From NCBI RefSeq assembly GCF_964204645.1, contig NC_134025.1:19133101-19197100 (forward strand): 64,000 bases of DNA, in the 5' to 3' direction. The stretch comes from Tubulanus polymorphus. Its lineage: Eukaryota; Animalia; Nemertea. The position numbers and the translations under genes are program-made. Shown one piece after another: positions 166 through 41,334 of this stretch (positions are counted from its first letter, which is position 1; each line of letters opens with the position of its first letter). The notes under the pieces were generated by a model. It saw only the letters and a program-made list of their open reading frames with translations, searched no databases and was not told the origin of the DNA.

Positions 166-1042
166 ATCAGACAAAATCTACCCATCAAATAAATCACAGG
201 ATCAATCCCTATCTTAAGATCTAAAAATACTAAGATCATCAAACTTTCACCCAAATTCATTTGCAAAAATAGAAACCGTATACCCCTACCCTGGAAATTC
301 TCATTTCCCTCCAGTGTTCTTTCCATATTCGTATGTTTCTTTGGTTACCCTGTTATCATATATATTTTTGCAATTACCTATTCAACCTGCCCATAGGCCC
401 AATGGGTTATTTCTGCATTGAAAGGTTCTTTTTTGAACCTTTTATTAACAAAAAACAATAACTATCATAAAACTTTGGCGAGACCAGGTGGTTTGAATTT
501 GACTTTTTCGTAAGGTTTTCAAGCCTTTTTCGTCAATCCAAACACCAAACTTGAAATTGCTTATTGGCTTAACAACGAAGCCCATTAGACATTAACCTAG
601 GCCCTACAACCTTAAGAGAACGGCTCAAGTCCATTAAAGCATTAAATAGTTCCAGCAGAGTATCATGCGGTACTTAACACAGCCATACTTTATATATATT
701 TAGTCTGATTTTGGCTTATAATGTTATGTATTTAAAATAATGAAATGTCTTAATTTGTCATAGTTAATGTTATATCATAAACATATATTCCATATATTGT
801 ATCTATAAACTTAGTAACAGTTTGTGTCAAACATTTATTAGCACCTGCAATTACTATAATCCCACAGACCTGTGTTGCTAATTGGTGTCTGACACTCAAC
901 AATTTAAGAGTAGTTATTCTCATATTATATTAATGCCAACATGTCTAAACTGTGAGATACATGTCTAGCAAGTATTGTTTATTTAATAACTATGGCTAAT
1001 TAACTATCAAACTCATGTCTCAGCTAGTTCTCAGCAGATGGG

Positions 1043-1076
1043 TATAAATACCCATGGAATGGAACTGCAGTCATTC
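1043..1076 (+). promoter_or_regulatory. LTR core promoter: TATA box plus Inr, predicted TSS about 1073
   Basis: TATAAAT at 1043 and TCATTC (TCAKTY Inr) at 1071-1076, giving canonical -30 spacing. Confidence 0.75.
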
Positions 1077-1439
1077 TATTCTGCTGACAATATACTACAT
1101 GAACGAGACCTCTGAGTTGCTCTTTATTTAATTCAAGGTAAGCCATTTTTATGTCATGTGACCTGAACTCTGGAGATTGTATTAGAGGCATGTTTTGGAG
1201 AAATAATCATTTAATATATCTCTTCAAATGTGCTTTTGATGTATTATACAGAGTCAGATTTATTAGTGGTTAAATCTAGCTTTTGCTTGTAATAAAATAT
1301 CATATTTTAAGCGTCAAATACTATTGCTTTTATAAATATTAAAAATATGTAACTTGTAATTATTATAATATTCATTCTATTCTACTGACAATACACTACA
1401 TGAACGAGACCTCTGAGTTGCTCTTTATTTAATTCAAGG
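1071..1439 (+). repeat. 68-bp intra-LTR direct repeat (1071-1138 and 1372-1439) bracketing a predicted 301-nt intron (1138-1438)
   Basis: Copy 1 ends CAAG|GTAAGC; copy 2 ends pyrimidine-rich TTCAAG|GAC; same layout in the 3' LTR (11545-11612, 11846-11913). Confidence 0.85.
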
Positions 1440-1605
1440 ACTGAGAACTAAGGCTCGATGACCGGAAGAAATCCTACGAATCAGAATTATCGATAAACGC
1501 GAAGTTCCCCTGTTCCGTCAACACTTACGACGCAGGAACCTGTAGAAACAAGACTCAAGGGGCTGATAGTTTCAACCACCCGCACCAGACCAGCCTGATT
1601 GGGTG

Positions 1606-2574
1606 ATGAACAACACCATGCCTTTGGGTAGAGTAGAAGCTTTTGACGGCCAGTCAGATGTTACGATGTGGTTACGTACATTCGAAACGTATTGTACGCT
1701 GAACAATATTCCGAAAGAAAAACACAATCAATTGATTCCTTTTTATCTCGAAGGGCCAGCGAAAACATGGTTTTATAACCTTGCTACGGCTGAGAGAGAG
1801 ACATACGAAAATATCAAAGATAAATTGGTATTGCGGTTTAAAAAGCATTATTGGGATTCGCTTCATGATCTTAAACAAAGGGAGGCGGAGACGACAGATA
1901 GTTACATCCATCGGGTGGAGCAGGTGTCTGTAGGTGCACCCTCGGAGTTCGTCATCGACATGGCAATCAGAGGGCTAAAACCACATCTCCAGCTGCCAGC
2001 GAGGCTGAACGATCATACATCTTTGGACGATTTAAGACGCCATATGGTGAATGTGCAACGAGCACCGTCAAATGGACCAGCAGTAGCAGCGGCTACAAAT
2101 ACATCTGGGAAGTCTACGTTAATTTTGACGGCAATCAACAAATTGACGCAAGCCATACAAGCAAATTCGGATAATGGATTAAGGACAATGGACAGTATGT
2201 CTCAGGTACAGGAAAATACAGAGAATGTTCGAGCAGCAGTTGCAGCCGCAAGCTATCAGCCGACACGTCGACATAACACCTATCAACCGACACAAGTTTC
2301 CTCTTGTGGACGCTGTGGTAAGTTACACGATTCTGGTGCTTGTTATGCTAATGGCAAAAAATGTTTTAACAGTGGCAAACCGGATCATTTTCAGCAAAAA
2401 TGTAGATCAGAAGAAAATAGTTTTCGGAACCAACAACAAGGGTCTGGTTCTTATAATCAGGCTAATTCAGGAAGACCTATTAGGGGTCACCAATTTAATG
2501 ACCAACGTTACAGTCGATCTGAACATAGGCCAAATCAGGGTTCTAGTAGCTTCCGTAGCAATTCACGTCATTGA
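1606..2574 (+). CDS. gag: Gag polyprotein
   Basis: Capsid-like N-terminus (FDG..WL..FE, LEGPAKTWF, LKQREAETTDSY) and paired zinc knuckles CGRCGKLH...C / CFNSGKPDHFQQKC with one Cys replaced by Ser. Confidence 0.9.
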   Translation: MNNTMPLGRVEAFDGQSDVTMWLRTFETYCTLNNIPKEKHNQLIPFYLEGPAKTWFYNLATAERETYENIKDKLVLRFKKHYWDSLHDLKQREAETTDSYIHRVEQVSVGAPSEFVIDMAIRGLKPHLQLPARLNDHTSLDDLRRHMVNVQRAPSNGPAVAAATNTSGKSTLILTAINKLTQAIQANSDNGLRTMDSMSQVQENTENVRAAVAAASYQPTRRHNTYQPTQVSSCGRCGKLHDSGACYANGKKCFNSGKPDHFQQKCRSEENSFRNQQQGSGSYNQANSGRPIRGHQFNDQRYSRSEHRPNQGSSSFRSNSRH

Positions 2575-2691
2575 AGACGCGGGCCTATCCAAAGGCAAAT
2601 GAATACACCTACGGATAGGCGGGTAGATGACAAACCAGTCGTTAACACGACGGTTCCTATGGAAAGAAATACTTGCGTGGTCACTGTTAAC

Positions 2692-5051
2692 AACAAGAGC
2701 CCCAAGGGGCACAATGGCCAGCCTGTCAGATTTGCTTTTTATAAATGATGTAATCTGTGGGTTATATTTATCAATATACACTCCCTGCTCAATATCATTT
2801 ACATAGTAAACAGGAATGAATGTAATATAGAAATACTAAGTTATTGTATTGTTCAACGCCCCTGGTGGCCATATACAAAAACCAATGAGCTTAAAAATCA
2901 CCAAGATCATAGACCATGTCATGAGCTACAACTTTCCAATTGATTGTCGTAGCAAAATATGCATAGGTACGAATGTAATATAGAAATACTAAGTTATTGT
3001 ATTGTTCAACGCCCCCTGGTGGCCATAAACAAAAACCAATGAGCTTGAAACTCACCTCGATCATAGAACATGAGCTACAACTTTCCAATTGATTATAGTT
3101 GCAAAATATGCTTAAGTATCAATTATGATGTGGAAAAACTTTTTTCCACCTACGAATGAGTACTGATGACTCCAAGATGGCCGCCAAGTGCGTCATAATT
3201 GCCTGGTCAAAAATACCCTCTCGGATATAAAAGATCCCTTTCCAAAGAATACCCATTACAAATTGCAATGAAACATGGCACACCATTAGAAAGCTACAGT
3301 ACTCAGAATTCAGGCCAAAATTGACATTTTTGGGAACAAAAAAGGTCACAGGACGGCCATCTTGAGTCCGATCGACCCAATTTTTCTCATGCCGATGGGC
3401 CCTCGGGGGAAACAAATATATACGAATGATCAAGGTTATTGATAAAAGTGTCTTCAAAATTTCGCTAGAAAACTTCAAAAATGTGTAAAAAGTGCTGATT
3501 TTGGCCAACAACAATGGCTGCCAGTCGGCCATCTTGAATCTGACAGGGCCAGTTTTTGGCCTGTGTCTAGGGTAGATACACGTATAAACCAAATATCAAG
3601 ACATTACCTTGAAGCCTCTTCAAAACTTTGGAACTCTCACGAACTATCTAGATGGTTATTTCTCGACCTCAATAGCTTCAAGACCCATCTCAAAACAACT
3701 TTGTTCCATGCAGCATACCATTAACTCTCGGAAAGCGAATTGTATTTAACATTTTTTTGGCAGAATAAAATTTGATTGAATTTGCAATTCGGGCACATGG
3801 CTAATTAGCATATCAAGGTCATACATCCGATTTGGTAAAACCATTTTTTTCGCGAACCTTGCGCAATTGTCAAGGATGAATTTTCTGTAGAGCAAATAAA
3901 AATTCCTCCCAAACACCAAATCAACTAAAGATTTCATAGAAATCGATCTTGAAATACAATTTTAATTCTTAAAATAAAACCCGGAAGTAAAACAGTAGAC
4001 GACCGCGGGTTCACGTGAACCCTGATATCTGTAAACGAAATGTTGGTTGTTACAAAATTGTTCAGACGGTTTTAGGTGGTAATAAGTACGGAAACGTAAC
4101 GACCATGGTCGACTTATTCGATGAAATCAGGCCTATGTGATATCCAAATTTTGACTTTTTTATTCTCCAGACCTCCCTGATATAGAAATAAAAAATGTTG
4201 GTGGTACGAAAGTGCAATCACAGCGCCGACGGGGACAGAGCCGTGTCAGAGATCGGCGGAATGAAAATTGAGGTGGACGAACACGAAGAAGTAGGCTATT
4301 GCGCTACTTGAATCACGAAAACTCCTGGCGCGGCCCCGACGCTTTTCGTTGATTAAGTAATACAAATATCATGCAATGGGTTTTCACAATCTACCGCTGG
4401 TATTTACCGGATTTCAATATCACTCCAAAATTCCTCGAAACCTCGAAATATCGAACCGGAACACTTCCGGTAGATATCCGCGGCTGCCCAACCGGGAAAC
4501 TTATTTGTTTCAATAGATATTGATAGGATCCATCATCTTCACCCGTCAAGGGATTCGAACCCACTAAGCTAAAGCCATGCCAGAATCGGGTCGGGCCAAT
4601 CACAGCGCTTGTAACAAACCACATTAGGCTTCTGTGGAATTTCCCAGTAAATGGGCCAATCAGCGAACACGTAGCGAAAGCGGAAGTATTGTCGTGTGTT
4701 GATACATGACGTCATGCGCAAAAGCGCCAGTAATGAAATCGCGATAATTCACGTGAACAGCTGCTGATATTTTCAGATAAACCAATCACAGGGAAGACAC
4801 AACTTCCTGATTGGCTGATAAAAATTGAAATTTTTACCGATTTAACTTTCGTGAAAAACGCAGAAAACATTTTTATGAGACCCTATTTCAAAATTCTGCT
4901 CGCTACGATTCCGAGAATGGATTACGCTTAAATACGTGATATACGTTCGAATATGCCCTCACTTGGCAAGCAAAAGAGCCTTTTGTGTGGAAACCATGTC
5001 ATTTAAATTCGCTCCATTTGTATAGTAATAGGCTCAGCCTACGGCTGGCCT
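2692..5051 (+). mobile_element. Composite HINE/Helentron-type non-autonomous element (family B) inserted in the protease
   Basis: Splits VVTVN | KKIVNALIDSGA in an A-rich target without TSD; 5' hairpin GCCCCAAGGGGC; subterminal IR GGCCAGCC (2716) / GGCTGGCC (5043); 3' end shared with about 23750-23832; carries a family A fragment at about 2815-3628. Confidence 0.8.
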
Positions 5052-8000
5052 AAAAAAATTGTGAATGCATTGATAGATTCAGGTGCTCAAATTTGCTGTG
5101 TATCAAAGTATACTTTAGACAAGTGTAAATTATCTCATAAAATAGAGCCATCCAATTATACATCTATTGTAGGAGTTGGGGGTGAAACACACGAGGTTGT
5201 AGGAAAAATCAATTTGCCTATCACCTTTGGTGGATCTCTGACCCTCCATTTTGACTTCCACGTTTTTAAAGTGTTACACCACCCACTCATCATTGGATAG
5301 AATTTTATGGAAAAATTCAACGTTTCTTTTATAATGGAAAAGAAACTTTTGGCCATAGGTGACCGACATGTTCAGCATATTGATTCAAATATTGGGTTGT
5401 ACAAATCCACACGCGGCGTTGTTATCCCACCCCATTCTACTAGTTGTATTCCTTTATTTGTCAAAAACCTTAGTAAAAACACTGAGGTGTTATTATTAGA
5501 ACCAGTTCAAACTTTACACAAAAACAAACTTGCTGGTGCTCGTACGCTTACTAAGTGTTGCAACGGTAAAGTTTTCTTCAATGTTTTGAATCCCACTGAT
5601 CAGGCGATTTTTATACCACGTAACAAAGTTTTGGCTACAGTACATGCCGTTGAAGTTGATTCTGTATCCGAACTGTTAGATTCTGTTTCTAGGGAAGTTC
5701 CTAACGTCTCAGTTGCATCACCTCATACAACCCAAATTAACACAGATCAAATACCAGATATTAGTTTCAACATTGATTCTGAAGTATTAAACGATACTCA
5801 ACGTTCAGCACTGCATAGGTTGTTGATACATAATCGTGATGTATTCGCGACAGGCATCTCTGAATTAGGTTGTACTGATCTCTACAGTCATAAAATTGAC
5901 ACTGGTGATCGTCCACCGATTCGACACCAACCATACCGTTATTCAGTTCCTATGAAACAGGAAATTGAGGCAAAGGTCAAAGAGATGGTGGATAATGGTA
6001 TTGCAGTGCCAAGCACCTCAGAATGGGCTTCTCCAGTGGTCATGGTTAAAAAGAAGGATTCCAAGGAATGGCGTTTTGCCATTGACTATCGGGCTTTAAA
6101 TGCATGCACTAAACCGATTAACTTTCCGATGCCTCGAACTTAAGATGTCGTTGATGCAGTTGGCCAAAGCCAAGCAAAATTTTTCTCTATCTTGGATTTA
6201 TCTTCCGGGTTTTGGCAGATCCCTATGGACAAAAATTCGGAAGAACGTACTGGGTTTGTTACCCATGAGGGCCAATATCATTTCAAAAAAATGCCATTTG
6301 GTTTGATGAATGCACCTATGTCGTTCCAAATGGTTATGTCTAAGGCACTTCAAGGTGTGCATTGGAAATATGCACTCTGTTATGTTGATGACATATTGAT
6401 TTTCAGTCAATCATTTGAGGAACACTTGCTGCATCTTGATCAGGTTTTTAAACGTCTGCGGCAAGCTAAATTAACATTAAAACCATCTAAGTGCTATTTC
6501 GGAAGAGATAAAGTCACTTATCTCGGTCACATTTTCAGTCGGCATGGTCTGCAGGTAGATGATGCAAAGATATCAGTTGTTAAGTCATTTCCAATACCAA
6601 AATGTCAACGAGACGTTCGTTCATTTTTAGGATTGTGTAACTACTATAGGCGGTTCATTTTAGGCTATGCAAACATTGCAAACCCGCTCAATACTTTGCT
6701 CAGAGCAAACGTTGCCTTTCGCTGGACGGAAGATGCTCAAGACGCATTCGATAAATTAAAAAGTGCACTCACCTCGGCGCCGGTATTACGTTATCCGAAT
6801 CCGAAAGCCAGGTTTACATTAACTACCGATGCTTCAGATAGTAGTATTGGCATGATTTTAGGTCAGGTTGATGATGATGGTAATCATTACGTTGTCTGTT
6901 ATGGTGGTCGATCACTAGGTCCTTCTGAACAGAAATGGTCAATCGTAGAAAAAGAATGCTTGGCTATCATAGAGGGTGTTGAGAAATACGGAGAGTATTT
7001 ACGCTATACGGAGTTCGATATTTTCACTGACCATCAGCCGCTTACTTACCTTGACAAGAATAAGAACCATAATTCAAGATTGTGTAGATGGTCTTTACGT
7101 TTACAAGGTCTTCAGTATACAATCCATTATAAACCGGGAAAGAAAAATGCAGCGGCTGATGCCTTGTCCAGGCGACTGTACCCATTATGTCATCAAGATC
7201 ATGATGATACAGATTTGCCAACGGTTCTAAGTATCGGCACACCTGCATGCAATGAAGTAACCTTTCATTATGCAACTGATGCGCCTATACAGGTTTTACA
7301 GGTCCAACCTGTACCTTCCGAGGAGCAGTTGGCTAAAGCTCAAAGGGAATGTCTTGACTGTCAGGACATCATCAGTTATCTTAAAGAGCAAACAGTTCCC
7401 AAGGACCCTAGACGTGCTAAATATCTCGCAACAATTGAAAATGAATATTACGTACGTTCAAATGGTATACTGTGTCACTTATACTACCCTAGGTCCAATG
7501 CACGAAAACGCAATAAAACAGTTATTTACCAAGTGGTACTACCACGCTCAATGAGGCGTGACGTTATATTGTCGTATCATGATTGCAAAGCCGGTGGTGG
7601 CCACTTAGGAGTGGAACTTAAGAAAACCTATGAAGCAATTAAGGAGCAATATTTTTGGCCCAGGATGTATTCGGACCTGGAAGCGTACATCAACTCTTGT
7701 AAGAATTGTCAGGAAAACAAACAGAACATGCACAATAAGCCTCCATTAAATCCTCTGCCTATCGCAGACAAACTACATAGATGGCACATGGATATCATTG
7801 GTCTATTACCACAAACTACAGATGGCCACAAATACATTCTTTTAGTCGTGGAAAGTATGTCTAGGTGGATTGAAGCTTTTCCATTACAATCACAGGAGGC
7901 TCCAGAGATTGCCAAGGTCCTGTACTCACAGATCATTACGAGATGGGGTGCTCCGAGGCACATCGTTACCGATCGTGGGCCTAACTTCATTTCAAAGCTT

Positions 8001-9041
8001 ATAAGGGCTGTCTCCGATTTATTCCAAATAACCAAGACGGAAACAAGCTCTTATCATCCTCAATCTAACGCGGCTTGTGAAAGGAATAATGCGACAATTG
8101 AACAGATACAACGGTCGTATATCGATAAAAGTCAGTCAAACTGGCACGAGTTATTACCCAGTGTAATGATGGTTCTTCGTAGGAGCATATCTCCTACTAC
8201 TGGGTTCTCGCCATTTGAAATAATGACAGGAAGACAGATGTCACTTCCGATTGATACCTCCCTAGTTCCAACTGATGCACTGACCAAACCGCACAAGCAA
8301 ATTGTGCAGGATATAATCAGCACAATAAAACCCGTTGAGCAATTAGCCAAGGAAAACATTCATGACACTCAGGTTAAAGATAAGACTAGATATGATAAGA
8401 AGTCAAACATCCCTACCTTTAAATTAAACGATCGTGTATGCTAAAAGGTGAAAAAGACCCCAAGGGGTTTGTCGCATAAACTGTACAAACAAACGGACGG
8501 TCCGTATTATATTCATAAGGTGAATGATAATTTCACGTATCATATAACTAAAGAGGATACTAATAAGGTTAGAAAAGGTGCAGTGAACGCCAAGTTATTG
8601 AAATATTTTAAAGATCCTGAAGATCGCCCTGATCATTTGATAGATGACGATACTCAGATAACGCCTACTCAAGCACCAACAAGTGACATTACGCAGCTAG
8701 ACAAGGTAGTTGATGGCACCCCAATTACTAATACTGATATATCATTGGGTGGCAAGCAGGTTGTTACAACGAAACCTATCAATGATAATCCTAATGGGCA
8801 TGTTGACAAAGCCGACTTGCCTCTTAAATTTCCAGGCCAGATCGATGCCTTAATATCATACAAATGTGTCGGTGGCAAAAAGATTTGGAAAGTACGATAC
8901 GCAGGTATACCCGGTAGACATGAAGTTGATGGTGTTTCAATTCCTGCCCACCTAATTCGATCATTTCACATAGCAAGGAGGGCAGATGGTCGTAAGCGTC
9001 GACGCCCCTATGTACAGAAACCAACGCAAGCACAAGTGTAG
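5052..9041 (+). pseudogene. pol: pol (PR, RT, RNase H, integrase with GPY/F and chromodomain-like tail), three in-frame stops
   Basis: LIDSGA, YVDD, TDAS, HHCC, D-D-E and DGPY motifs all in one frame; stops at 5298, 6141 and 8442; N-terminal piece at about 2659-2691. Confidence 0.93.
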
Positions 9042-9144
9042 TTAGCCATTCAACTCTTGGATTAGTTCTCAATTAGGGCCAACTATCTGTGCTAGGATTT
9101 TAGGTTAGATGCAGGGCCCGCATTCTTCCTTGATTCATTCGGTC

Positions 9145-9173
9145 CTAACTGAGGTTCTCTTTTTCATTTGTAG
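9145..9173 (+). promoter_or_regulatory. Splice acceptor for subgenomic env mRNA
   Basis: CTAAC branch point, pyrimidine tract and TAG immediately before a hydrophobic signal-peptide-like reading frame. Confidence 0.75.
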
Positions 9174-11015
9174 GATTGGCAACCACAGCGATTGTTCTGT
9201 TCCTCCTGATGGCAACCGATCATATGATACAACAGGTACAGAATGAAGTAGAATCAATCTATAATATGGAAATGACTAGTTCACAAATGTATAATCTTCT
9301 GTTCACTACTCTAAGTAATTCACATCTTATCACGACATCTATAAATCAGTTTCATGAAGGTATTCGCCAATTGGTTTCTGGAAAGATTCCGCCGAGTCTA
9401 ATCTCACCGCATGTCTTGAAAGGGACTATAAATCATGTTCAAAAACTCGGACGTACACTATTATTTCTCGGAAGCTTCATTCTTTTACACTAGACGACGG
9501 GATAGCATTTTCTTAACTATTAAGTTGCCTCTTTCATACTTTCGGTACCCTTTACAATTATTTCAAATTCAAACATTTCCCGTGCCTATCAACAGCACGT
9601 CGAATTACGGCACTAAATTAGTAAGCCATGCTGATTACCTGCCGCTTTCGAATGATAACTCTTATTATGCCCTCTTAACTACAAGTGAACTACTTTCTTG
9701 TGAAGCCACCAGTAGTAAGGTGTGTCACACTAGTGTTCCTGTTAAGCCGGCCACAGCAGGATCTTGTGAATATGCTGTATTCGCAGACGATAAAATCATG
9801 GTGGAAAAGTTGTGCAATTTCAACGTTTTACCCAATGCCATTTCTTCAAATATTCAGCCATTAGAATCACCCGCCATATTAATTACACGAGTATCGCATA
9901 TCAATCTACTATGTAAAAACAAGAAAAAGCACATTATTGGATGTGACTTCTGTGAATTAAGGGTGCCTTGTGGGTGCGCCGTTACCACGGAACGTCTGGT
10001 CATTCCACCGCGTATATCAAGTTGCAATGGTTCCTCGACCGAACCACAGATACTTCACCCCGTCAATTTAGCGTTGATACAAGAATTTTTTACAACCGGT
10101 ACTCATTCAACAATATTTGGTGGAACCACCTTTTCGAAACCCATAGATATGAAGTTACCAAACCTTAACATCTTCAATCATCGATTTTCTCATATTCTTG
10201 GTACAGATGACAAAATCGCTATGAATTTGAAAGTATTGGCTAATGCAACTCGCCATGACCAATCGGTGTATCATTCACTGACTGAAGGCCTGCTGGACGG
10301 TGCTATTGCATTGCCGGCTCCATGGCCCACGTCATTAAGTGATATCATTGGATTGGCAGCGCTTCTGTTGTCCAGTGTTGTTTCCATTGTTTTATTCATT
10401 ACTTGCAAAAAGCTACGCACGATCACTGTTACACTCAACACCCTAGAAAGAGTACATTCGGTTAGGGCAGCAATACTACCTAAGTTCATTTACGACAATA
10501 TTGCCACCCCACCACCGACGACGACTCCCATTAATTACTTAGCTATAAGCTCTTTGGAAATATTATTATATACCACCATCCTTTTACAGGTTGTCATATT
10601 ACTGTATTGCTTTTTCAAAAAAGCATTACGTCGTGGAAATGAGACTCGTATTCTTTTGGAGGTTACATGTGGCTCTCATTGTGTTATAGTGCCACTTATG
10701 ACACTATCTATGTGTCCGTCGCATTGGCACATCATACCACCCTTAAGGATATCAAATCTACAGATTATGGGGTGTTGGATGCCTGAATTACATATTGATA
10801 TTGCTGACATGTCGGTTATAAGTCGTTACAATAATAAGGCTATGGTCATACCTAAATATTTTAAACTATCTATATATCAAGCGTTCATATTAAAGAAAAT
10901 ATTGCGTCACCCGTTTGCCACGAATGTGATTATCGAGCACCATAAACGTGTAACTCCATTGATTACTGCACCACAGATGGACCATCCTCCATCATACCCA
11001 GGCCTACCTGCCTAG
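9174..11015 (+). pseudogene. env: env-like glycoprotein (baculovirus F/errantivirus-like), frameshifted near 9440 and probably internally deleted
   Basis: Signal-like LATTAIVLFLLMA, GKIPPSLISP motif, Cys-rich ectodomain with N-glycosylation sequons, two TM segments, long C-terminal domain ending PPSY. Confidence 0.8.
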
Positions 11016-11120
11016 GTATAAATTAAGCTGTCGGTGTATCCTTATTCTTGTATATACACTAAATTACTGTTATTCTATTATCTATGTAATATCGACTTTT
11101 CAGGAGAAAAGTTTTTTTTC

Positions 11121-11132
11121 AGGTGAGGGGGT
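11121..11132 (+). other. Polypurine tract
   Basis: AGGTGAGGGGGT abutting the 3' LTR. Confidence 0.85.
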
Positions 11133-11921
11133 AGTATCATGCGGTACTTTACACAGCCATACTTTATATATATTTAGTCTGATTTTGGCTTATAATGTTA
11201 TGTATTTAAAATAATGAAATGTCTTAATTTGTCATAGTTAATGTTATATCATAAACATATATTCCATATATTGTATCTATAAACTTAGTAACAGTTTGTG
11301 TCAAACATTAATTAGCACCTGCAATTACTATAATCCCACAGACCTGTGTTGCTAATTGGTGTCTGACACTCAACAATTTAAGAGTAGTTATTCTCATATT
11401 ATATTAATGCCAACATGTCTAAACTGTGAGATACATGTCTAGCAAGTATTGTTTATTTAATAACTATGGCTAATTAACTATCAAACTCATGTCTCAGCTA
11501 GTTCTCAGCAGATGGGTATAAATACCCATGGAATGGAACTGCAGTCATTCTATTCTGCTGACAATATACTACATGAACGAGACCTCTGAGTTGCTCTTTA
11601 TTTAATTCAAGGTAAGCCATTTTTATGTCATGTGACCTGAACTCTGGAGATTGTATTAGAGGCATGTTTTGGAGAAATAATCATTTAATATATCTCTTCA
11701 AATGTGCTTTTGATGTATTATACAGAGTCAGATTTATTAGTGGTTAAATCTAGCTTTTGCTTGTAATAAAATATCATATTTTAAGCGTCAAATACTATTG
11801 CTTTTATAAATATTAAAAATATGTAACTTGTAATTATTATAATATTCATTCTATTCTGCTGACAATATACTACATGAACGAGACCTCTGAGTTGCTCTTT
11901 ATTTAATTCAAGGACTGAGAA
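11133..11921 (+). repeat. 3' LTR of element 1
   Basis: Near-identical to 659-1447. Confidence 0.93.
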
Positions 11922-12008
11922 AACAACGGCATCATAAGAGACTTATCACATTGGAAATAAATCCGCCAATATTAGACTGATTGAATCTTGAGACATTACG
12001 CTATAGGG

Positions 12009-13430: not shown

Positions 13431-16400
13431 AATAAAGGACAATGGGTCGAGCAAGATCAACTGAGAACATTTTACTTTTGAGGTCAAAAATCGATTTGTT
13501 CTCGGATTTGCAATGATGTATAAACAGCTCATAAAGATGAAATCTTGCTGCACTGTAGTAAGCATGTTCAGCTTTGATGATGGTAATTGGTTTTCCCTAT
13601 GACTCACTAGCATGTGGCAGAACAATCAATACTATGTTCATGATAAGAACATCACTTGGAAAGCCCTTCTGAAGAAACAAGGTCAAGCATCAATTAGTAG
13701 AATAGGGAGAAATTCATCTAAATTTTGGACATATTCTCCCAGTACTTCTTTGAGGCTAAGAGCTGATGGACGGAACTCTCCATATTAATTCCAACCCCTA
13801 TCTTCCTCCTAATGAAAAAAATTAGCTGTGTATATTCAAATGGTTACAGTTTGTGCCACCAAGAGCTAATAGAAAGTTACTCTCAGAACCATTCTGTAAG
13901 GATCAACGCAGTTGATCCTGATCCATCAAGAATGAGCACCTAGCACAGGAGACACAGTGTAAAATAAATTGTCACCCCCAACTGGGGAGACATAATCACT
14001 GAGAGTGTTATTTCACTTATATATGTTCATATATACTTACTCATCCCAAAATGTACAGCACTGTTGTTCTCCAGGGTTGCCACAGCAATACGTGTGATCA
14101 TCGCTCATACTGTCATATGTCGGACATATGAATCGTCCCAGGGGAAATTTAGTTAAGTTGCGAACAACTTGAAAATTTGTGCATATTGTAGCTTCTGCAA
14201 TTAAAAAGTTTTTAGACTCTTCATAACAGTAGGACCAAAGGCCTTGACGTCAAAGGATGGATTCTCGAAGGCACCTGGCATATAAGTATCAGTAGCTGGA
14301 AAACACAGCAGCAATACATTTCAAATTATACACAATGTATGGTATGTTTGGACCAATAATTCTGTTAGACATGTACCTACACTTGTTGAAAATGCATGAC
14401 TAAATCGCTTTCAAGAATAAATTTTAATTGCCAGTAAATTTTGAAAATGATTCTTCTTTTTAAATGGATGTGCAATTCAATTTTCACGCCGACAAATCCC
14501 TGTTAGTTTTTCAGGCTGGATGGAGGGAATCGTTTATGAAATCAACCAGTTTTAACTGTCACAACCTTTGATTTTTTCAGCCTGCCGGGAAATTATATAA
14601 GCCTGCTTTTACTTGTAATATGTAAATAATAAAGAGGATATCTCAAAATCTCACTTAGGATTTACTTAGCATATTACATCCACACCATGCCAGGTAATAA
14701 CGGTCATGCTTCATTCACGCATGACTGAGCTTCAATTAATTCTGAAAATTGAAAAACATCAAGCATGCATATTAAAAATCACAAATTCAACACCAGGTCT
14801 ATGAAACAGCTCAATGAGGCGGATGCTGTTGCTTTAAGTTAATTGTTAAATTTCCGATGTTTGAAATTGATAGTTTTAGTGGAATAAAGACTCGCTCAGT
14901 AGCGAGTGTACTTAATAAAACTAAGATAACAGCTGGACACAACTAACAGTGGATGTATTAGTCGAGATCAAAGAGCTTGAAGTAACAATAGTTGTGTGGC
15001 TCAAACCACTGAAAGTGAACAAAACGAGCAGTTAGCAACGTGAGAAACAATCACAGAACAAAGATCCATGACTTCTATCTAGCATAGATTCCAGTGATAA
15101 CAAAACTAGATCGGGCACAGTTTCACTAATTTGAGAGAGTTAGTCAGTTCATCAAAGCACTAACCATACAACTCACCATAATCATAGAACGTGTCACTAG
15201 CATGTCATTTTGTAATATATTGTGGTTACAAAATATGCCTGGGTACCAATGCAATATGAAAATAGTAAGTTATTCGATTATTCATGCCCCTGGAGACCAT
15301 ATACAACAACTGATGACCTGGAAACTCTTCACAATCATAGAACATGTCATGAACTACAATCCAGGAAGAAAAACACTCTAAATATTTGGATGGATATATG
15401 AAAGCTGTGGGTACTGGAGTGTGTAATGGGTAGTGTAGTGTGATCTGTGTGCATTTGTGGCCAGCACACAGATCACATTGTTCAATGGGGTTTGGTCCAG
15501 GACTCGCGAGATTTTCAACAACACGGAAGAAACGTGTAATAAATGATGACTTGAATTGCATGACTACCTACCACCCCTCATTATTGTTGGAAAACTAAAC
15601 GTTCGGCACTGACTAAAAATTAGTAATAACATTTTAGAAATGGCCAGAATTTTAACTTAGGTTCTATCTCATTTTTATTTTACAATTGCGATTGGTATAA
15701 TTTTTTTTTTAACGGCCATTAAGGCTTCATGTTTCGTCTGCAATTCACTGCAAATAGTTACGCAACTACGCACATTTCAGTGTTTTTGGCAGCTGTACAC
15801 TCAATCGGCACCGTTCGTGACTAGCTTCACTGCGGAATTATCATTAATTAACATCGCCATATCACATCATCAACTTATATTGTGCCTTAAAACCCTAACA
15901 GCCGAAATAATTGAAATGCACATACAATTTATATCATTGAAAATTGAGAGAGTGGCCATGTTTGTGTTTGCTGTTTCGCATAAATCCCGTGCGGTGGCGC
16001 AACCACGCGGAGTGGGGCCGATACGTCTAGCCATCGTTTCTGGTGGCAAAATATGCCTAGGCACCAATAAGATATGAAAGTGCTAATTTATTCAGCTATT
16101 CAACACCCCGGTGACCATACTATACATATTGTAATCACACACAACTGCATCATGTTTCATCATGAATATACATGGTAGTGGACTTTCCCCACTGACTCAA
16201 ATAGACACTCTCTATGTTTCGTTGCGTGACGATTTCATTTATTTCATACACTGTTATACGAAGTTCGTTAGGCAATTGATTTTCATAAATTGAACAATTT
16301 CCGAGATTCACTTCCCCCTTTCCCAATTTCACTGCCCTAATGTAATTCACTGCTGTTCACAGCCGCCTACAATGAACCCTGGCAGTTGAATCACTTGCAA

Positions 16401-24299: not shown

Positions 24300-27200
24300 G
24301 GGTCATTCACTGAATACATCCGTGATGAGCGGATGTGTGTAATAAACAATTTAATAATAATCGAGTAGTTATTATTGGTTTCATTTCCATTTGTTTATTA
24401 TCGCAGGTGGGTGATTTTAATATCTTTATAGCGCCTCTAGTAGGTAGCTGGTTGGAATCGGTGTTTAATGGGTTGTTGTAATAATTCTCAGTTGAAATGG
24501 CTGGGGTTGATAAGGATATCCGATGCCGGAAGTGTTTTGAGTTTTGGCGCCCGGAAGTAATTAGGGTTTCTGCTGCCTTCGCAGAAACCCTATTGTATTC
24601 CTGCTGATTATTATTATTATTAGGGTTTCTGCTGCCTTCACAGAAACCCTATTGTATTCCTGCTGATTATTATTATTATTATTATTATATTCTTTTTCAC
24701 ACTGGATCTTACTGAAAGGATATAAACAACTGCAACTTACTTTCACTGTCGGTGAAACCATTCTGTATCACAAGTACTACGCTGCATTGACAAATACTGT
24801 ATATAATATTAATCAGAATGCCACTGTTTACTCACTGCGAGCCTCTAAAACATCGATATTCTAAATTCTATAAAAATTGATACACATGTACCTGGTTACA
24901 AAACGAAACGAACCCCTTATATGATTAGTTCCCATTTTAACCACTAGGGGGCGTAAATTTTGAAAAATCGATTTCAGCATCCATTTTTCGCATTTTATGC
25001 GGTCTGTTTATTATGAAAATCACAAAACTTGGTATAAGGACAAAGACATGTGTGTAATATGCCATCCTGCATGATTAGTTCATACAACTGCCACTAGTGG
25101 AATGTGAAAACAACGATTTTTGCTCCTAGGTCCTTAACCGTTGGTGATAGAATCGAGGTTGCAATGTGTGGTTAGTAGCCCTTTTCAAGATACTTGTATT
25201 TATGTATGGTTTAAGTAGGTAACTTATATGGTTCTCCAGGAGCGCCACCTACATTTTGCTGGAAATGCATTTTCATTGATAGCTACTAAGCGGATAAAGG
25301 GTCTCTATGAAAATTGATATACATGTACCTTGATATAAGATACAACGAATCCCTAACATAATTAGTTCCTATTCTAACCACTAGGGGCGTTTATGTTGAA
25401 AACTCATTCTAGCATCAGTTTTTTCGATTGTAATTCAGTAGTATGCTAACCGGCAAATTACCGGCCACTTGAACATGGTAAAAGTACCGTATCTTCGTTA
25501 TTCACGGTGTCATATCCCCTAACCTTGGTACATTAGAACTTTTCGCGTAGTATCCCATGTGAATCAACATAGCCATGTTATCAGCTGACCCCTAGGTGGC
25601 GCTCCTCATCCAGCAAGGCAGAAACCTGTTATCGCTGCTTTGCAGCTATATTTATTATTATATTCTTTTTCACACTGGCTCTTACTGAAAGGATATAAAC
25701 AACTGCAACTTACTTTCACTGTCGGTGAAACCATTATGTATCACAAGTACTATGCTGCATTGACAAATACTGTACGTGATATTAATCAGAATTGCACTGT
25801 TTACTCACTGTGAGCCTCTAAACATCGAAATTTAAGCCCGATTCAAACAGTATCCATCTACGTATGTGTTTTGCCTACGTGTCATTCCCACAGTGCGTCA
25901 GTGCGTCTGTTTGTGTCAGTGTCCCTATAAGCAGTGATAGAGCTGGTGTACTAGATCTGTAGTTTTTTAGTATCTTTATATATATGTGGCGCACTGAATG
26001 GGGTCAGTCTCGAGTGAACGCAACTGAGGAATTTTTGTGCCACATATACAAGCAATAGCATCCTTGCAGTAACTTCCCTGGATAGAGCTAATGAATGCAG
26101 CCACGGTATCTATACGCGAGAGCCTGGATGACTATATTCTTCTGCTATCATTACAATATTCCTTGACGGATTTACTTGAAACTTTCGTGAGATGTACGGA
26201 ACACAGGTACCTTGAGGTAAGTCGAAAGGATCTTTTATTTGGGACCCAGTTCACCCACCAGGGCGTGTTATACATTTGAAAATTATGACATCGAAAAGTA
26301 ACTGTGTAAGAAAAATTTTTGTATTTGACTTTTCAGCTTCGGGCGAGCACGAAAGTTGTTCATAACAGCCCGGAGGTTAAAAAAGTCAATGGCACGCCCT
26401 ATCTACGATTAACCGTTTGGGCTCTACGAGCACGAAAATGGGCCCCCAAATTTTGTAATAGATTTTTGCTCCTAGCTCCTTAACCATTGGAGATAGAATC
26501 GTGGTTGCAACGAATGATCAGTAGCCCTTGCGAAGACGCTTTTATTGATGTATGGTATAACTATGTAACTCATATGGTTCTCCAGTAGCGCCACCTATAA
26601 GACGCTGGAATACGCATTCATCTATATCGACTAGGGGTACTAATGGATTTCTATAAAAATTGATACACATGTATCTGGTTACTAAATGAAACGAACCCCT
26701 TATATGATTAGTTCCCATTTTAACCACTAGGGGGCGTAAATTTTGAAAAATCGATTTCAGAATCCATTTTTCGCATTTAATGCGGTCAGTTTATTATGAA
26801 AATCACAAAACTTGGTATACAAAGACATGTGTAATATGCCATCCTGCATAATTAGTTCATACAACTGCCACCAGGGGACCTAGAAAACAATGATTTTTGC
26901 TCCTAGGTCCTTAACCGTTAGCGATAGAATCGAGGTTGCAATGTGCGCGTAGTAGCCCTTGTGGGTCAACATATCCATGTCATAAGTTGACCCCTAGGTG
27001 GCGCTCCTTTAAAAAGAGGAACATTATGAACTGCTTTCGATGAAATGTTTGCACGCACCCTTGTACGACATTGTATCCAGCAAGGCAGAAACCCGTTATC
27101 GCTGCTTTGCAGCTATATTTACATATTTTAATCTCAGTCTATATTTGATAATGTTATGAATTGGGTTATGTATAAGTATTTCTATATGTCACGAGCTAAA

Positions 27201-28401
27201 TTTTGTTAACTCTCCTAGTTGTATTCAGCCGTGTTCATATAAGCTTTAGTGTACATTTAACTACTCATGCAGGGTCTTTTGTCGTTTCGTTGACGAAGCA
27301 GTGTAGCGACGAATGCGTGCCGTCCTTCGACGTGGGCAAACTATAGTTTCTTTGTGGTCGTTGTAATGCTATCGACGACCTATCATATCGTTGCATTCCA
27401 TATTGTGGTAAGTCTATATACGACCTGGTGACCATTTCTCGTGGTCAGAAATTATTTGCAAGCCCGTGAAGCACGGACAGGCTACAGCTGTTCAGAGATG
27501 TTTGCCGCGTGTGATGGGGTAAGGAAAAATTATTTGTATAAACCAGTAGTATTATTGCTAGTAATGTTAATTAGTTCAATTTAGGTAGAATAATTAGCGG
27601 ATTTGGTAATTATTTCATGTTTTCAAATACTATTTTGGCTAATTGTCGTAATTTGTCATTTGGTCATTCGATTCGAATATTTCAAATACTTGTCTCTATT
27701 AAACAAGGCGTTTATAGATGTATGAATTCCTGTTTCACCTTATCATATGTTTGTGATCATATGTATATTTGAATTGTAAATGTTCGTTATGTGTGTATTT
27801 GCAGCTCCTTCTTCTTGCTGTTGTTAGTATCAATAGTATATTCTAATCATTAATACTCATATCACTACATCCGACTCGACTGAGATTCGTCAGCAATCAG
27901 CAATCAGCTATTAACCGAACTGACCCGGATGACTATCGTCACCGTAAACGCCGTCATATACGGACGTCGCCTAATCATCAGAATAACTTTTCTCAAGTTG
28001 ACGGATATCTCCGCTGATCCATAAACGACCATCTTCAATGTGACCACTGCCTTCAATCAGATTCAAATTGTAGTATTTCTATATTATTTTTTTTTTCCGT
28101 TTTTTTTTTTGTGTTAATTAAACTATTTGTAATTATATTTAAGAGTTATCTCAGTAATTCGGTTTTCTTTTTCTGAGGAGTCACTCTCGGTCACGTGTAC
28201 CTCGTGACACTATATCAGTGATCATTAATGAGTAATAAGTATTTGACAAGTATTTCTATATCAGTAATCAATTAATGCAGATTTATATATTGATGGGTCA
28301 TTCACTGAATACATCCGTGAAGAGCGGATGTGTGTAATAAACAATTTAATAATAATCGAGTAGTTATTATTGGTTTCCTTTCCATTTGTTTATTATCGCA
28401 G
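24300..28401 (+). repeat. 107-bp intra-LTR direct repeat (24300-24406 and 28295-28401) bracketing a predicted intron (24407-28401)
   Basis: Starts GGGTCATTC (Inr) and contains AATAAA; copy 1 ends GCAG|GTGGGT, copy 2 ends pyrimidine-rich TATCGCAG|ATC. Confidence 0.85.
24561..27120 (-). mobile_element. Tandem HINE/DINE-1-like elements (family C)
   Basis: Duplicated terminal hairpin AGGGTTTCTG...CAGAAACCCT, (ATT)n microsatellite, internal repeats, and the other end GCAGAAACC.GTTATCGCTGCTTTGCAGCTATATTT at about 25650 and 27120. Confidence 0.8.
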
Positions 28402-28538
28402 ATCGGTTGGCCAGGAGGATCGAGCAGGATCGGTCGGTGAGGTGTCCGACGCAGTGAAGTGGGTGAGTCGTTCTGTAACCCTCATCAGTAGGATCGTTTC
28501 CGGCGTAAGTGCAGCAGCTGTAAAAGCGGCGGCCACAT

Positions 28539-28556
28539 TGGCACCCTCGCTGGGAT
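28539..28556 (+). other. Primer binding site of element 2 (inverted copy at 35380-35397)
   Basis: TGGCACCCTCGCTGGGAT one base after the LTR-terminal CA; cognate tRNA not identified. Confidence 0.75.
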
Positions 28557-28614
28557 AATTGGTATTCGCCGATTGAAATTTGTCCGGCTAGCCTCGGAGG
28601 CTCTGGATGGTAAT

Positions 28615-28902
28615 TTATTCACTGCGACCGACCGGTGTTTATTCACTGCGACCGACCGGTGTTTATTCACTGCGACCAACCGGTGTTTATTCGTTGTGAC
28701 CGACCGGTGTTTATTCGTTGTGACCGACCGGTGTTTATTCGTTGTGACCGACCGGTGTTTATTCGTTGTGATCGACCGGTGGTTATTCGTAGTGATCGAT
28801 CGGTGGTTATTCGTAGTGATCGATCGGTGGTTATTCGTATCGATCGATTGGTATCTATTTGTGGTGAACGACCGCTATTTATTCGTTGTGTTCGACCGGA
28901 AT
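28615..28902 (+). repeat. 24-bp tandem repeat (12 units) in the retrotransposon leader
   Basis: Unit TTATTCGTTGTGACCGACCGGTGT with a gradient of divergence. Confidence 0.9.
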
Positions 28903-29787
28903 TGTTTCGCTCGGAGTGAACGCTGATCGTTTGCGGTAGAGTTCGTGGTGAGAACCAGCCTGGCGAGAATTAGCGCGGTGGTCAGGGATCCATGGTGGTG
29001 AAATAGGAAGAACCTAGGTGAAGAAAAGTTTGGCGAATCGTTAAACTACTGGTAAGCTTCGATAAGTAGTAGTAGAGATAATTGATCGTAATTAACAACT
29101 AAGTTGTGTTGTCTTGTGTGCGTCTACTTGTTTGGTGTGGTGGACATTTTGCTTTATGTTGCGGAGTAAGAGACTCTATTATTATATTTATTTAATTTAT
29201 GGCGTTTTGATTTTTTGCTGCAAGGATTGCGCAATTTATGCTTTATTTTCTGCTTGCTTTAATTTTGCATGATTTATGATTTATGTTGAAACTGCTTATA
29301 TTTGTGTGTTTTATGTGCATGAAGGGAAAAAAATCCTGATAGTGGTTTCGTTCAGTTGTAGCTGTAGATTCTGCTTAATTTTTCTGCATGATTCCAATGT
29401 GAAACATTATGTTCGATTTTTGTTTTGATTTGGCATGTTAGATTTCTTAAAAGATTGAATATTTATTTTGCTTGAAAAGGTGAAAGTATATGTACACGTG
29501 GTTTGAGGATTTCACTTTGTCGAAAAAAAATGTTTGGATTTCTCAGAATAGTAGCTCAAAATGTTTGTTGACTTAGTGTACTCCTGTATTTGTGTTTAGC
29601 TTGGTAAGTGCTTAGATCTGTCATTGTATGTATTGAGGTAGGTTTTATGTTAATCCAACTCAACTGTAAGCCATTTACTGAGAGGGGTATAGGTCAAACA
29701 TAGGTGATTAAGAATTAATACAAACCTGCGATACTGTATATTCTATAATAATTGCTATTACGTGTCGTAATACGTATTACGTGTCGT

Positions 29788-32724
29788 GTACGATCAGAAT
29801 GTAATCGAGCCGGTGCCCCATAACGAAGAATTACCTCATTAAAGATGACACGGGCAGTGGTCCGAGCAGTTTCATTCTTGGTGGGCACTGCAATTGCAAA
29901 TTTGGTGAAATGGTCCGTCATGACCAATACTTTCTCGTATCCCTGCGATTTCTCCAACGTCAGGTAATCTATACACAATACCTCCAAAGGGTAGGACGTC
30001 TGAATATTCTTTAAAGGTGCCAGTTGCCGCTTTGGAAAGAACACATCATTTGCATCCCTTCAAATAATTCTCCACGTCCATACGCATCCCCGGCCAATAG
30101 CATTTTTGTGACAACAGGGCTAATGTTCGGTCCCTGCCTGGATGACCTAGCTCATCGTGAAGGTTCTGCAGAACCCAACCAATCTGCGACTGCGGTAACC
30201 ATAACCTCAATTCCGTCCCTCCATCCCCTGGAACTTCTCTATAAAGTAAACCTTCGCGTACCTCCAAGGATTTAAAAATACGGCTCACAACATACTCTGA
30301 CGGTTTCCTGCGGCGAAATTTTCTCTTGGATACAAAACAATCAACGATCCGCCTGATAATAGGATCCTCATTTTGCAATGATTTTATATCCACAGCTGCC
30401 ATGCCGCTGGATGTCCATTCCGGTGTACGATCGGCATTCCTGCATATCGCAGAAAGCACCTCAGCTGCCATACGATTCAGAGGGCTCCGTGACAGCACAT
30501 CCGCATCCCCCATTCTACATCCGCTTTGATATTCCAGTTCGATATCATAAACCGAAAGCGCTTGTAACCAGCGATGCCCTGTGGCATCAAGCTTGGCCGA
30601 CTTTAGTACGTACGTTAATGGGTTCGAGTCAGTTTTTACCAAACATTTTCCGCCGTAGAGGTAGTCATGAAACTTCTCGGTTACTGCCCATTTCATGGCG
30701 AGAAATTCTAACTTGTGAGCCGGATATTTCCTCTCTGAAGGACTTAACCCGCGACTGGCATCAGTATCACACGCCGTGTTCCATCAGCATCAGTTTGATA
30801 CAGCACTGCGCCCAGACCCGATTGTGCTGCGTCGGTGTGGAGCTCGAACGGCTGTGAAAAGTTCGCAAAACCCAACACCGGAGCCGATGTTAACACTTCT
30901 TTCAACCTAGTGAACGACGTTTCCTCTCGTTCACCCCACTCAATAACTGCATTCCGTTCAACCATTTTCCTCTTTCCCTTCTTGTTAGTTATTCCGGAGA
31001 GAAGTTTCGTATGAGGGGCGGCAATACTAGCGTAGCCCTTGATGAATCGTCGATAATATCCGGAGAAGCCCAAAAATCTTCGAACATCCGCCACAGTTTG
31101 AGGAACACACCAATCCTTGACGGCCGACAGCTTTGAAGGATCAGGTTCAATACCTTTTTCGGACACCTTGTGACCCAGATATATCACGGACGATCTCAAA
31201 AACTCACACTTAGAAGGCTTTAGTTTTAATCCAGCTTCCCTCAAACGATCAAACACCTCCCCAAACGCTCGAGATGTTCCTCAAATGTCGCCGAAAATAT
31301 CAAGATATCATCTATGAACACAATACAATCTCACAAATTCATATCCACTAAAACTCGCTCCATGAGCCTTTGAAAAGTGGAGGGAGCATTTGTCAATCCA
31401 AAAGGCATTCGATTAAACTCCCAAAACCCGAAACCAGGTCCAACATTAAACGCTGTTTTGCCCTTATCCCTCTCACTCATCTCCACCTGCCAGTATCCCG
31501 ATTTTAGATCCAGACTAGTAAAATACTTTGCCCCTGCAACACTAATAACTCGTCTGCTCGAGGCAATGTCTGACGATCTTTAACTGTACGACGATTAAGA
31601 GTCCGGTAATCAACGCAAAATCTCAAGCCACCATCCTTCTTTCTCACAAGGACCACCGGAGACGAGAATGGCGAAAACGAAGGCCTTGTAACACCTGCCG
31701 ATGCCATCATGTTCAGATGATCCCGAACCTCTTGAATCATTGACGGTGGAACCCGTCGATACCGCTCTTTAAATGGAACATTATCGGTTAAATTAATTTC
31801 ATGCTGAATCATAGATGTGCAACCCATATCCGTATCTGAAAAAGAAAACGCTGCCCGTTGTTTCCGCAATGTATCCTTCAATCTAAGGACCTGCTCGGGA
31901 GTAGTGTCACTTTCATCCCACTTAAACAGTTCCAAGAATTTGTCATCCTCCCCTGATCGAATTAATTTAGTCTGCTGTTTTAGTGGGGTTACAGGATCCT
32001 TCATCGCCGGATTCACCTGGTCAACCGCTTCAACCGCGCATATAACAGCCCTAGAGGGAATCGTAACCGGTCGGCAGCCAACATTTCGCACACATACACT
32101 GATCCTATTACATCGGACAGTTACGACCTTGGACAATGTTGGTACTAGCATCAGCGTTCCTGGCAAACTAACTGCTTCTGTTGTGCAAGTCATTGCCATC
32201 CTCGAATCTCGAGGCAGATCCCGAACTATTCCACGGATCGACACTTGACACATCGGAGGAACAGTAACCGTCCCCGTTGTCCTAACGTCCTCCGGTTGTC
32301 TATGTAGGAAGTCTTTTACCATTCCAACCGGTCCATCAGTCGTCCTCAATAACTGCAAAACGTTGGTTCCAATCACGACCGGTACCCTTTTACTATATTC
32401 TGTATCCTCCACGACTAAAACCAAGGCAACCACAGTGTGACCATCCACTGTCATCTTGACCTCAGCACATCCATAATACGGCAAATCTCCTCCACATGCC
32501 GTTTTCACATCAAGGAAATCCTGGACAGGAAAAACTGCAGTATCTGAAAGAGAAATGAAGAAACTGGATGAAACAGTGGTTACTTGAGCACCGGTATCAA
32601 TCAAGGCCGATGTTTTTACATTATTAATTACAATTTCCGCTTCATTAGCTGGACCTACAATCGATGACCTGTCTGACCCAAGGCCCCTGGACCAGACCCC
32701 GACAGGTTTCCCGACCTCAGACAA
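29788..32724 (-). pseudogene. pol: Gypsy pol (PR-RT-RH-IN), frameshifted and truncated inside the integrase
   Basis: LIDTGAQ, FCVDYR, FIDD, HTDA, LHDELGHPG, CIDY and RLHSD motifs; ends abruptly after HSD. Confidence 0.92.
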
Positions 32725-34142: not shown

Positions 34143-34143
34143 G

Positions 34144-37100: not shown

Positions 37101-37386
37101 TATTACACATGTCTTTGTACTTATACCAAGTTTTGTGATTTTCATAATAAACTGACCGCATTAAATGCGAAAAATGGATTCTGAAATCGATTTTTCAAAA
37201 TTTACGCCCCCTAGTGGTTAAAATGGGAACTAATCATATAAGGGGTTCGTTTCGTTTAGTAACCAGGTACATGTGTATCAATTTTTATAGAAATCCATTA
37301 GTACCCCTAGTCGATATAGATGAATGCGTATTCCAGCGTCTTATAGGTGGCGCTACTGGAGAACCATATGAGTTACATAGTTATAC
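34144..37386 (-). repeat. Right arm of the inverted duplication (leader, PBS, partial LTR 35399-36816, partial HINE C)
   Basis: Reverse complement of 26555-29768. Confidence 0.95.
35010..35321 (-). repeat. 24-bp tandem repeat (13 units)
   Basis: Inverted copy of 28615-28902 with one extra unit. Confidence 0.9.
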
Positions 37387-41240: not shown

Positions 41241-41334
41241 TGTGGTGGCTGATGAGGGCCATGCGTAAAAAAAACCACGTATATGCAAATGAGGGCGACA
41301 TTATGACAAAACGACAAAACAAAAATAACGCGAC

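Follow-up and report, generated by a model that had tools for sequence, protein, structure and literature searches.

A duplicated predicted first exon in gypsy long terminal repeats and a putative intron that may be rebuilt by reverse transcription

Both long terminal repeats (LTRs) of element 1, an env-bearing Ty3/gypsy retrotransposon of Tubulanus polymorphus, contain a short segment that runs from the predicted transcription start to a splice donor and then recurs downstream, where its end reads as an acceptor. The feature is real, and its anatomy is conserved across distant gypsy families. Judged from sequence, such an LTR can be described as U3-R-spacer-R-U5, and it is fairly probable that it harbors a cap-proximal intron that is spliced out at the 5′ end of the RNA and rebuilt by reverse transcription. 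The layout was found in two animal gypsy clades. A broader proposition is that self-regenerating introns of this kind have arisen more than once among LTR retrotransposons, letting them splice their RNA 5′ ends as an ordinary host gene does, and that they may amount to a general and so far undescribed fourth solution to the two-ends poly(A) problem; on this the sequences leave us evenly balanced.

Element 1 and its LTRs

Element 1 occupies positions 661 to 11936 of the window (the whole 64,000-nucleotide stretch of contig NC_134025.1 that was analyzed), and all of its features are given here on the plus strand. The 5′ LTR spans 661 to 1447, and the 3′ LTR, delimited by sequence comparison, spans 11135 to 11936 (802 bp). 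Ends at 659 and 1447, which come without a target duplication, were considered and rejected; the true ends, 661 and 11936, are flanked by an identical 4-bp target site duplication at 657 to 660 and 11937 to 11940. Only 4 differences over 787 bp separate the two LTRs, so the insertion is young. The LTR termini (661 to 668 and 11929 to 11936) have the form TA...TA, with an inverted repeat matching at 7 of 8 positions, instead of the usual TG...CA. The left target duplication sits within a short multicopy repeat, and in sequencing runs X1 and X2 other copies of this repeat continue past 660 into sequence resembling that after 11940. In X1, the target repeat (about 621 to 660 and from 11941 onward) has a summed depth about 90 times that of the flank and many differing flanks, and a preference for this insertion target is possible.

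The domain order recovered with Pfam (gag, reverse transcriptase [RT], RNase H, integrase) is that of Ty3/gypsy elements. gag lies at 1618 to 2574 (PF03732; E, 1.5e-08) and pol at 5031 to 9041, with matches to RVT_1, RT_RNaseH, Integrase_H2C2, and rve. A protease-like motif near 5070 was spotted by eye, and Pfam gave no protease match in 5301 to 6140. The env-like gene (9174 to 11015) has a strong acceptor in front of it (9173|9174), and the start of its open reading frame (ORF) resembles a signal peptide. By itself the ORF has no Pfam match; it is internally shortened, with a part missing that relatives have. Its nine homologues are 31 to 38% identical (E, 2e-92 to 3e-73), and six of them, including P0001 and P0007, match PF12259 (Baculo_F). 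One env homologue is named from Pinctada, and among the named pol homologues nearest in identity are those of the molluscs Pinctada, Mytilus, and Haliotis. A polypurine tract (11120 to 11134) lies immediately 5′ of the 3′ LTR.

This copy of element 1 is broken. Its pol contains stops at 5298, 6141, and 8442, gag and pol are separated by further repeat insertions, env is shortened, and the 5′ LTR has lost its last 15 bp or so together with the primer-binding site. The tRNA-Ala-type primer site and LTR end that are absent here were found in other copies (run X1), and the primer-binding site is also seen in clade relatives; the tRNA-Ala type was assigned from matching rows of supplement file 2 of PMC13524379.

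How might env be expressed? Following codon 3 of gag, a donor-like site (1627|1628, within 1618 to 1633) is in the phase required to fuse the start of gag with the signal peptide of env, and a splice from this site to the acceptor at 9173|9174 (region 9143 to 9181) is predicted. The donor in R was also considered as the source of the env start codon and was rejected, since the only ATG of exon 1 meets a stop before that donor.

Elsewhere in the window, ORFs for gypsy-type protease, RT, RNase H, and integrase zinc finger at 30046 to 33401 (minus strand) are flanked by 3.25-kb inverted repeats (26555 to 29771 and 34141 to 37386; 98% identical, with 24-bp tandem arrays inside), so that this gypsy pol is bounded by long inverted rather than direct repeats. 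A 1.4-kb duplication (39721 to 41159 and 44120 to 45283; 88 to 93%) with a 280-bp internal repeat adjoins a 31-bp tandem array (41329 to 42266). The end of the window (52300 to 63900) is filled by a dispersed repeat family with 154-bp subrepeats, one copy of which (2750 to 3630) lies inside element 1, in the gap between gag and pol.

The duplicated segment itself is 68 bp long. In the 5′ LTR, a TATA box (TATAAA, 1043 to 1048) is followed, 28 bp from its start, by an Inr-like TCATTC (1071 to 1076), whose A at 1073 is 30 nt downstream of where the TATA box begins. Here begins copy 1 (1071 to 1138), the predicted first exon, which contains the variant poly(A) hexamer AATATA (1089 to 1094), a 10-codon upstream ORF from 1099, and, at its end, the donor AAG|GTAAGC (1137|1138). 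The end of copy 2 (1372 to 1439) reads as an acceptor, ...TTTAATTCAAG|G, at 1438|1439, the copy terminating TGCTCTTTATTTAATTCAAG|G. In the 3′ LTR, copy 1 lies at 11545 to 11612, with the donor following (11611|11612), and copy 2 at 11846 to 11913, with AATATA at 11864 to 11869. The two copies match at 66 of 68 positions in the 5′ LTR and at all 68 in the 3′ LTR, and within-window blastn of the repeat gave E values of 1e-27 to 1e-30. A sequence-only reading of the window had described this Inr-to-donor repeat, recurring 301 bp on in both LTRs, and its coordinates hold to the base. It had also stated that splicing out 1138 to 1438 would remove exactly one repeat period, and the length of that interval is indeed 301 nt.

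The predicted GT-AG intron (1138 to 1438) thus consists of the spacer, which is 75% A+T, and copy 2. Within it are seven ATGs, an AATAAA (1291), and an ATTAAA (1338). Its acceptor is AAG, a less common type, and from a branch-like CTGAC (1385) to the acceptor the sole AGs are two GAGs. Copy 2 of this 5′ LTR has two private differences (1384 and 1394), and X1 contigs from other copies match copy 1 at both. Do those other copies keep the spacer? A family whose members mostly lacked the duplication had been named beforehand as evidence against the proposal. In X1, contig depth, a rough measure, is 179 for the spacer contig, 192 for the U3 contig, and 38.5 for the flank (X1 and X2 come from one study, and X1 is possibly the source sample), which indicates that most copies of the window family retain the spacer. 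The contigs showed no joints, which is neutral on splicing: the 68-bp repeat exceeds the 31-nt assembly word, and a spliced form would leave no distinctive words.

The same layout in other gypsy families

Three further gypsy families, represented by loci L006, L048, and L070, have the same anatomy in unrelated LTR sequence; the LTR regions of these three and of L001 gave no blastn match to any other fetched locus. Their repeats are 57 to 70 bp long and 95 to 100% identical, with periods of 259 to 352. Each contains a poly(A)-type hexamer, a donor directly follows copy 1, and a pyrimidine-rich AG ends copy 2. The sequence-only reading had asked whether the repeat always runs from Inr to donor and whether copy 2 tracks copy 1; its comparative predictions are borne out in all three, where the repeat stops precisely at the donor and the two copies are closely alike. 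In L006 (env 29% identical), a TATA box at 2558 lies 26 bp upstream of a 70-bp repeat (2584 to 2653 and 2843 to 2912; 98.6% identical, period 259) with the donor CAG|GTATGA, and a primer site follows U5. The L070 repeat is 61 bp long and 100% identical, with a period of 352 and the donor CAG|GTATGT. That of L048, located between a purine tract and gag, is 57 bp long and 94.7% identical, with a period of 303 and a GC donor, CAG|GCAAGT.

Across the four families, the window included, spacers are 70 to 80% A+T and the predicted introns are 259 to 352 nt long, with 7 ATGs in L006 as in the window, 11 in L070, and 13 in L048. All four have the sequence features of U2-type introns (a GT or GC donor, a pyrimidine tract, and an AG acceptor). 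The hexamer within the repeat is AATAAA in three families, 21 to 30 nt before the junction (30 nt in L006, 23 in L070, and 21 to 26 in L048), and AATATA, 43 nt before it, in the window. GU-rich sequence directly follows copy 2 in L070 and L048. Each family is represented by a single LTR or a single young copy, and the agreement between copies 1 and 2 was scored within it rather than along a family tree.

Two oddities may be recorded here. A G precedes copy 2 but not copy 1 in L006 (2846) and L070 (6355) and is absent in the window and L048; it might be a trace of cap copying, which with two of four families is too weak to use. In addition, the two LTR regions of the L070 element are each cut into by a 159-bp inverted repeat (98%; 5635 to 5793 and 13787 to 13945), and the MAG behind L070 contains a second copy, which ends inside copy 1.

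The relatives were gathered with env and pol alignments. With env, a single genome_contigs locus and 9 metagenome_contigs loci were matched, and with pol, 77, 29, and 79 loci in partly overlapping sets; in viral_contigs there were no env relatives, and two pol alignments were also without matches. The loci look like eukaryotic contigs binned into MAGs. Gypsy-type retrotransposon contigs occur in many bacterial and archaeal MAGs of genome_contigs, probably as host or eukaryotic contamination.

How common is the layout? A strict rule was applied to direct repeats of 25 to 250 bp that are at least 80% identical in a gapped comparison: the homology had to end 0 to 1 nt after an AG, and copy 1 had to be followed by GT or GCAAG. 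(An earlier exact-seed scan, which missed L048 and let in repeats spanning the GT, was replaced by the gapped one.) Among 115 loci plus the window, a set from which 62 distant viral loci (L093 to L154) and 9 duplicates had been excluded, 5 of 117 sense pairs pass, namely, both window LTRs, L006, L048, and L070, versus 0 of 117 antisense pairs. A further 66 loci gave 1 of 50 versus 0 of 55. The one pass, L188, has an 86% identical repeat without a hexamer, outside its LTR pair, and counts as background. The totals are therefore 6 of 167 sense pairs (5 in LTRs and 1 background) versus 0 of 172 antisense pairs. The layout is absent from most of the fetched loci that have an LTR pair, which makes it a minority trait.

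Could the repeat be nothing more than a local, neutral duplication with ends that happen to coincide with Inr and splice motifs? These loci are rich in short direct repeats, as the 167 sense pairs attest, and L188 passes the splice rule from outside an LTR. Against this stand four families that share boundaries, similar lengths, an internal hexamer, and a position in the LTR, and the complete lack of antisense passes. Chance is thus a highly improbable explanation; the blastn E values and the identical boundaries in three other families argue that the repeat is no accident.

In a quick IQ-TREE analysis of RT (84 rows, with SH-aLRT support only), the window groups with L001, L004, L008, L013 to L016, L029, and L047 (support, 99), and L048, L070, and L038 form a separate group (support, 100). 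L006 is linked to the window through env only. Gag is too divergent for a pattern scan.

How an LTR intron might be rebuilt

In the proposed cycle, transcription would start at about 1073, and 1138 to 1438 would be spliced out, leaving cap-R-U5-primer site at the 5′ end. In the 3′ LTR, the RNA would be cut and polyadenylated in copy 2, at a point between the hexamer and the AG, which would keep the 3′ intron from being spliced; we infer an RNA 3′ end at about 11884 to 11899. U1 on the donor would silence the identical poly(A) signal in copy 1. Strong-stop DNA, made up of exon 1 and U5, would land in the terminal copy 2, pair with it, and be extended through the spacer, copy 1, and U3. Both new LTRs would regain the intron, and copy 2 would be rewritten from exon 1 in every cycle. 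Jumps onto copy 1 would instead give intronless LTRs, perhaps selected against with the loss of the donor guarding the 5′ poly(A) signal. The strand transfer step rests on standard LTR reverse transcription, plus inference.

What would the element gain? The likely use is control of the poly(A) site and the clearing of upstream ATGs from the gag leader, since the predicted introns hold 7 to 13 ATGs per family that splicing would also remove. The sequence-only reading had suggested an expression boost or escape from surveillance; the two uses named here appear at least as likely.

Several observations favor this cycle. (i) The boundaries are exact in both window LTRs. (ii) The strand control is sense only. 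(iii) A hexamer lies within the repeat in each of the four families. A segment reaching from start site to donor and placed directly before U5 has one simple origin, the reverse transcription of a spliced 5′ end, and retention of the upstream donor and spacer has one simple route, the landing of strong-stop DNA downstream on an unspliced 3′ end. Once copy 2 exists, the jump would be an ordinary homologous strand transfer, and copies that are 95 to 100% identical within families that share nothing with one another are what rewriting copy 2 from exon 1 in each cycle would produce. The sequence-only reading had placed the RNA end inside copy 2, and the hexamer inside the repeat of the three other families would indeed put it at or before the acceptor.

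Other observations count against it. Canonical hexamers occur upstream of copy 2 in the spacers of three of the four families (the window, which has two, L006, and L048), and use of one would yield RNA without copy 2, from which the intron would be lost. The two in the window, AATAAA and ATTAAA, went unmentioned in the sequence-only reading, against whose model they count. By a rough estimate, canonical hexamers in the spacers are about as many as A+T content would give. In the window repeat, moreover, the sole hexamer is a variant and the acceptor is AAG. The cycle also gives no account of why U1 should block copy 1 yet not copy 2, about 250 nt on. Folding gave mixed results on whether U3 pairs with the donor and so masks it. 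Such masking is predicted in L006 (none of 35 shuffles as low) and L070 (1 of 60) but not in the window (7 of 25), and a duplex test was not significant in any of seven loci.

Relatives show other LTR states. L029 has a promoter and an R with AATAAA 45 nt before CAG|GTTAGT, followed by AT-rich sequence up to the contig end, with copy 2 off the contig. In its sister L013, a homologous promoter and R are joined straight to U5 and the primer site. L013 looks like the form expected from intron loss and resembles the spliced product of the L029 layout. L014 has the complementary part, an AT-rich stretch and then an R-like part with AATAAA 36 nt before CAG and U5, with copy 1 off the contig. In L001 the scaffold breaks exactly at the end of R, and one side is a continuous TATA-R-U5. 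The MAGs behind L001, L014, and L048 were searched, and no second LTR copy supplying the missing halves was found in them. L013 and L001 show that intronless LTRs can spread. Because the window AATATA, 43 nt from the junction, is placed where L013 (42 nt) and L029 have AATAAA, it is supported as a poly(A) signal.

Two loci have an intron-like LTR segment of a different build. L038 (269 to 866) and L163 (about 6960 to 7350) have a TATA box, a short exon, a GT donor, an AG acceptor, and then a hexamer, with no duplicated exon. Duplication is therefore not the sole way to keep such a segment, and these putative introns are possibly retained by another route.

L038 and L163 bear directly on the main rival reading, in which the intron is spliced in mRNA and the packaged genome is mostly unspliced. 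A single long R of about 340 nt would then keep the intron in the ordinary retroviral way, and the duplication would have arisen as a side effect when strong-stop DNA from an occasional spliced RNA landed downstream, in rare events that keep the copies alike. This is a serious rival, since it needs no special 3′ end and since L038 and L163 keep their introns without a duplication. Retention of introns through unspliced genomes is standard for retroviruses. The LTR of HTLV-1 contains an intron (10.1101/2023.01.28.526022), and Penelope yields both spliced and unspliced RNA (PMC2377424). Rare events fit poorly with the copy identity, which, in four families with unalignable LTRs, needs frequent rewriting. 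Furthermore, the acceptor of copy 2 exists only as exon 1 ends in a pyrimidine tract and AG, something that only repeated reuse explains. On balance this reading seems unlikely.

What if there is no splicing between the copies at all? The donor could be a U1 site that suppresses early polyadenylation or serves env mRNA, copy 2 a duplicated poly(A) module, and its pyrimidine-rich CAG or AAG end no more than a cleavage context. L008 and L016, in the window clade, do have donor-like sites upstream of AATAAA without duplication, U1 binding to the R donor of foamy virus suppresses polyadenylation (PMC3694450), and env has its strong acceptor. Such a scheme does not account for the limits of the duplicated unit, the start site on one side and precisely the donor on the other, which exon 1-U5 splicing explains. 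Nor can the R donor give env a start, its exon's ATG being stopped short; the site at 1627|1628 appears to have the right phase instead. L013, too, looks like a spliced form of the L029 layout. We regard this alternative as quite improbable.

Set against these alternatives, the regenerating intron proposed by the sequence-only reading has gained from the comparative predictions and from an intronless sister LTR, and it has been weakened by the canonical hexamers in three of the four spacers and by L038 and L163, which do without a duplication.

Known systems and what the layout would mean

Element 1 resembles the “ancient errantiviruses,” invertebrate env-bearing Ty3/gypsy elements described in PMC13524379, in its gag-pol-env order, F-like env, LTRs, and, in other copies and relatives, a tRNA-Ala-type primer site. 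By the operational criterion used there of a third ORF homologous to an F-type envelope, it would belong among them by way of its nine env homologues. The layout is not tied to env, as it also occurs in L048 and L070 of another clade. In the main text of PMC13524379, “intron” appears only in a reference title and “splic” is absent.

The closest parallel for the donor is the foamy virus LTR (PMC3694450), in which a donor lies just past the start site in both LTRs, beside a poly(A) signal that U1 likely guards. In element 1, too, transcripts would carry an LTR donor at each end, if the start is placed by TATA/Inr spacing. U1 suppression of LTR polyadenylation has been shown for foamy virus and is described for HIV-1 (PMC3694450). 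As far as the foamy virus LTR is set out in that source, no duplicated exon supplies an acceptor within it. In element 1, by contrast, the hexamer occurs on both sides of the donor, upstream of it in copy 1 and downstream of it in copy 2.

HTLV-1 keeps its LTR intron through unspliced genomic RNA. It is like element 1 in having an intron within the LTR, and no duplicated first exon is described for it in the portion of 10.1101/2023.01.28.526022 consulted; its poly(A) signal is in U3 (PMC3694450). LTR-derived introners (PMC12130899) also combine LTR sequence with spliceosomal introns. There, an entire element or solo LTR serves as the intron within a host gene, whereas in element 1 the predicted intron lies within the element's own LTR.

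Penelope-like elements (PMC8557442 and PMC2377424) keep a short promoter-proximal 5′ untranslated region intron in a terminal repeat. Reporter output was abolished when the Penelope intron was deleted, which sets a precedent for selection acting on such an intron (PMC8557442 and PMC2377424). These elements have a different RT class with a GIY-YIG endonuclease, as well as pseudo-LTRs, and no exon duplication is described in the sections of those papers drawn on here. Element 1 was considered as a Penelope-like element and rejected as one, having a gypsy-type RT, RNase H, and an rve integrase. The route by which Penelope-like elements retain their intron is stated to be unknown, and PMC8557442 calls its significance unknown.

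Full-text searches of open-access papers returned no description of the layout; older subscription papers or Repbase notes could contain one. If the proposed cycle is true, it would run counter to the rule that retroelements lose, within one cycle, any intron spliced from their genomic RNA. It would also provide a concrete mechanism for keeping an intron, which is still lacking for Penelope elements (PMC8557442), and it makes testable whether transposons keep introns to resemble host genes.
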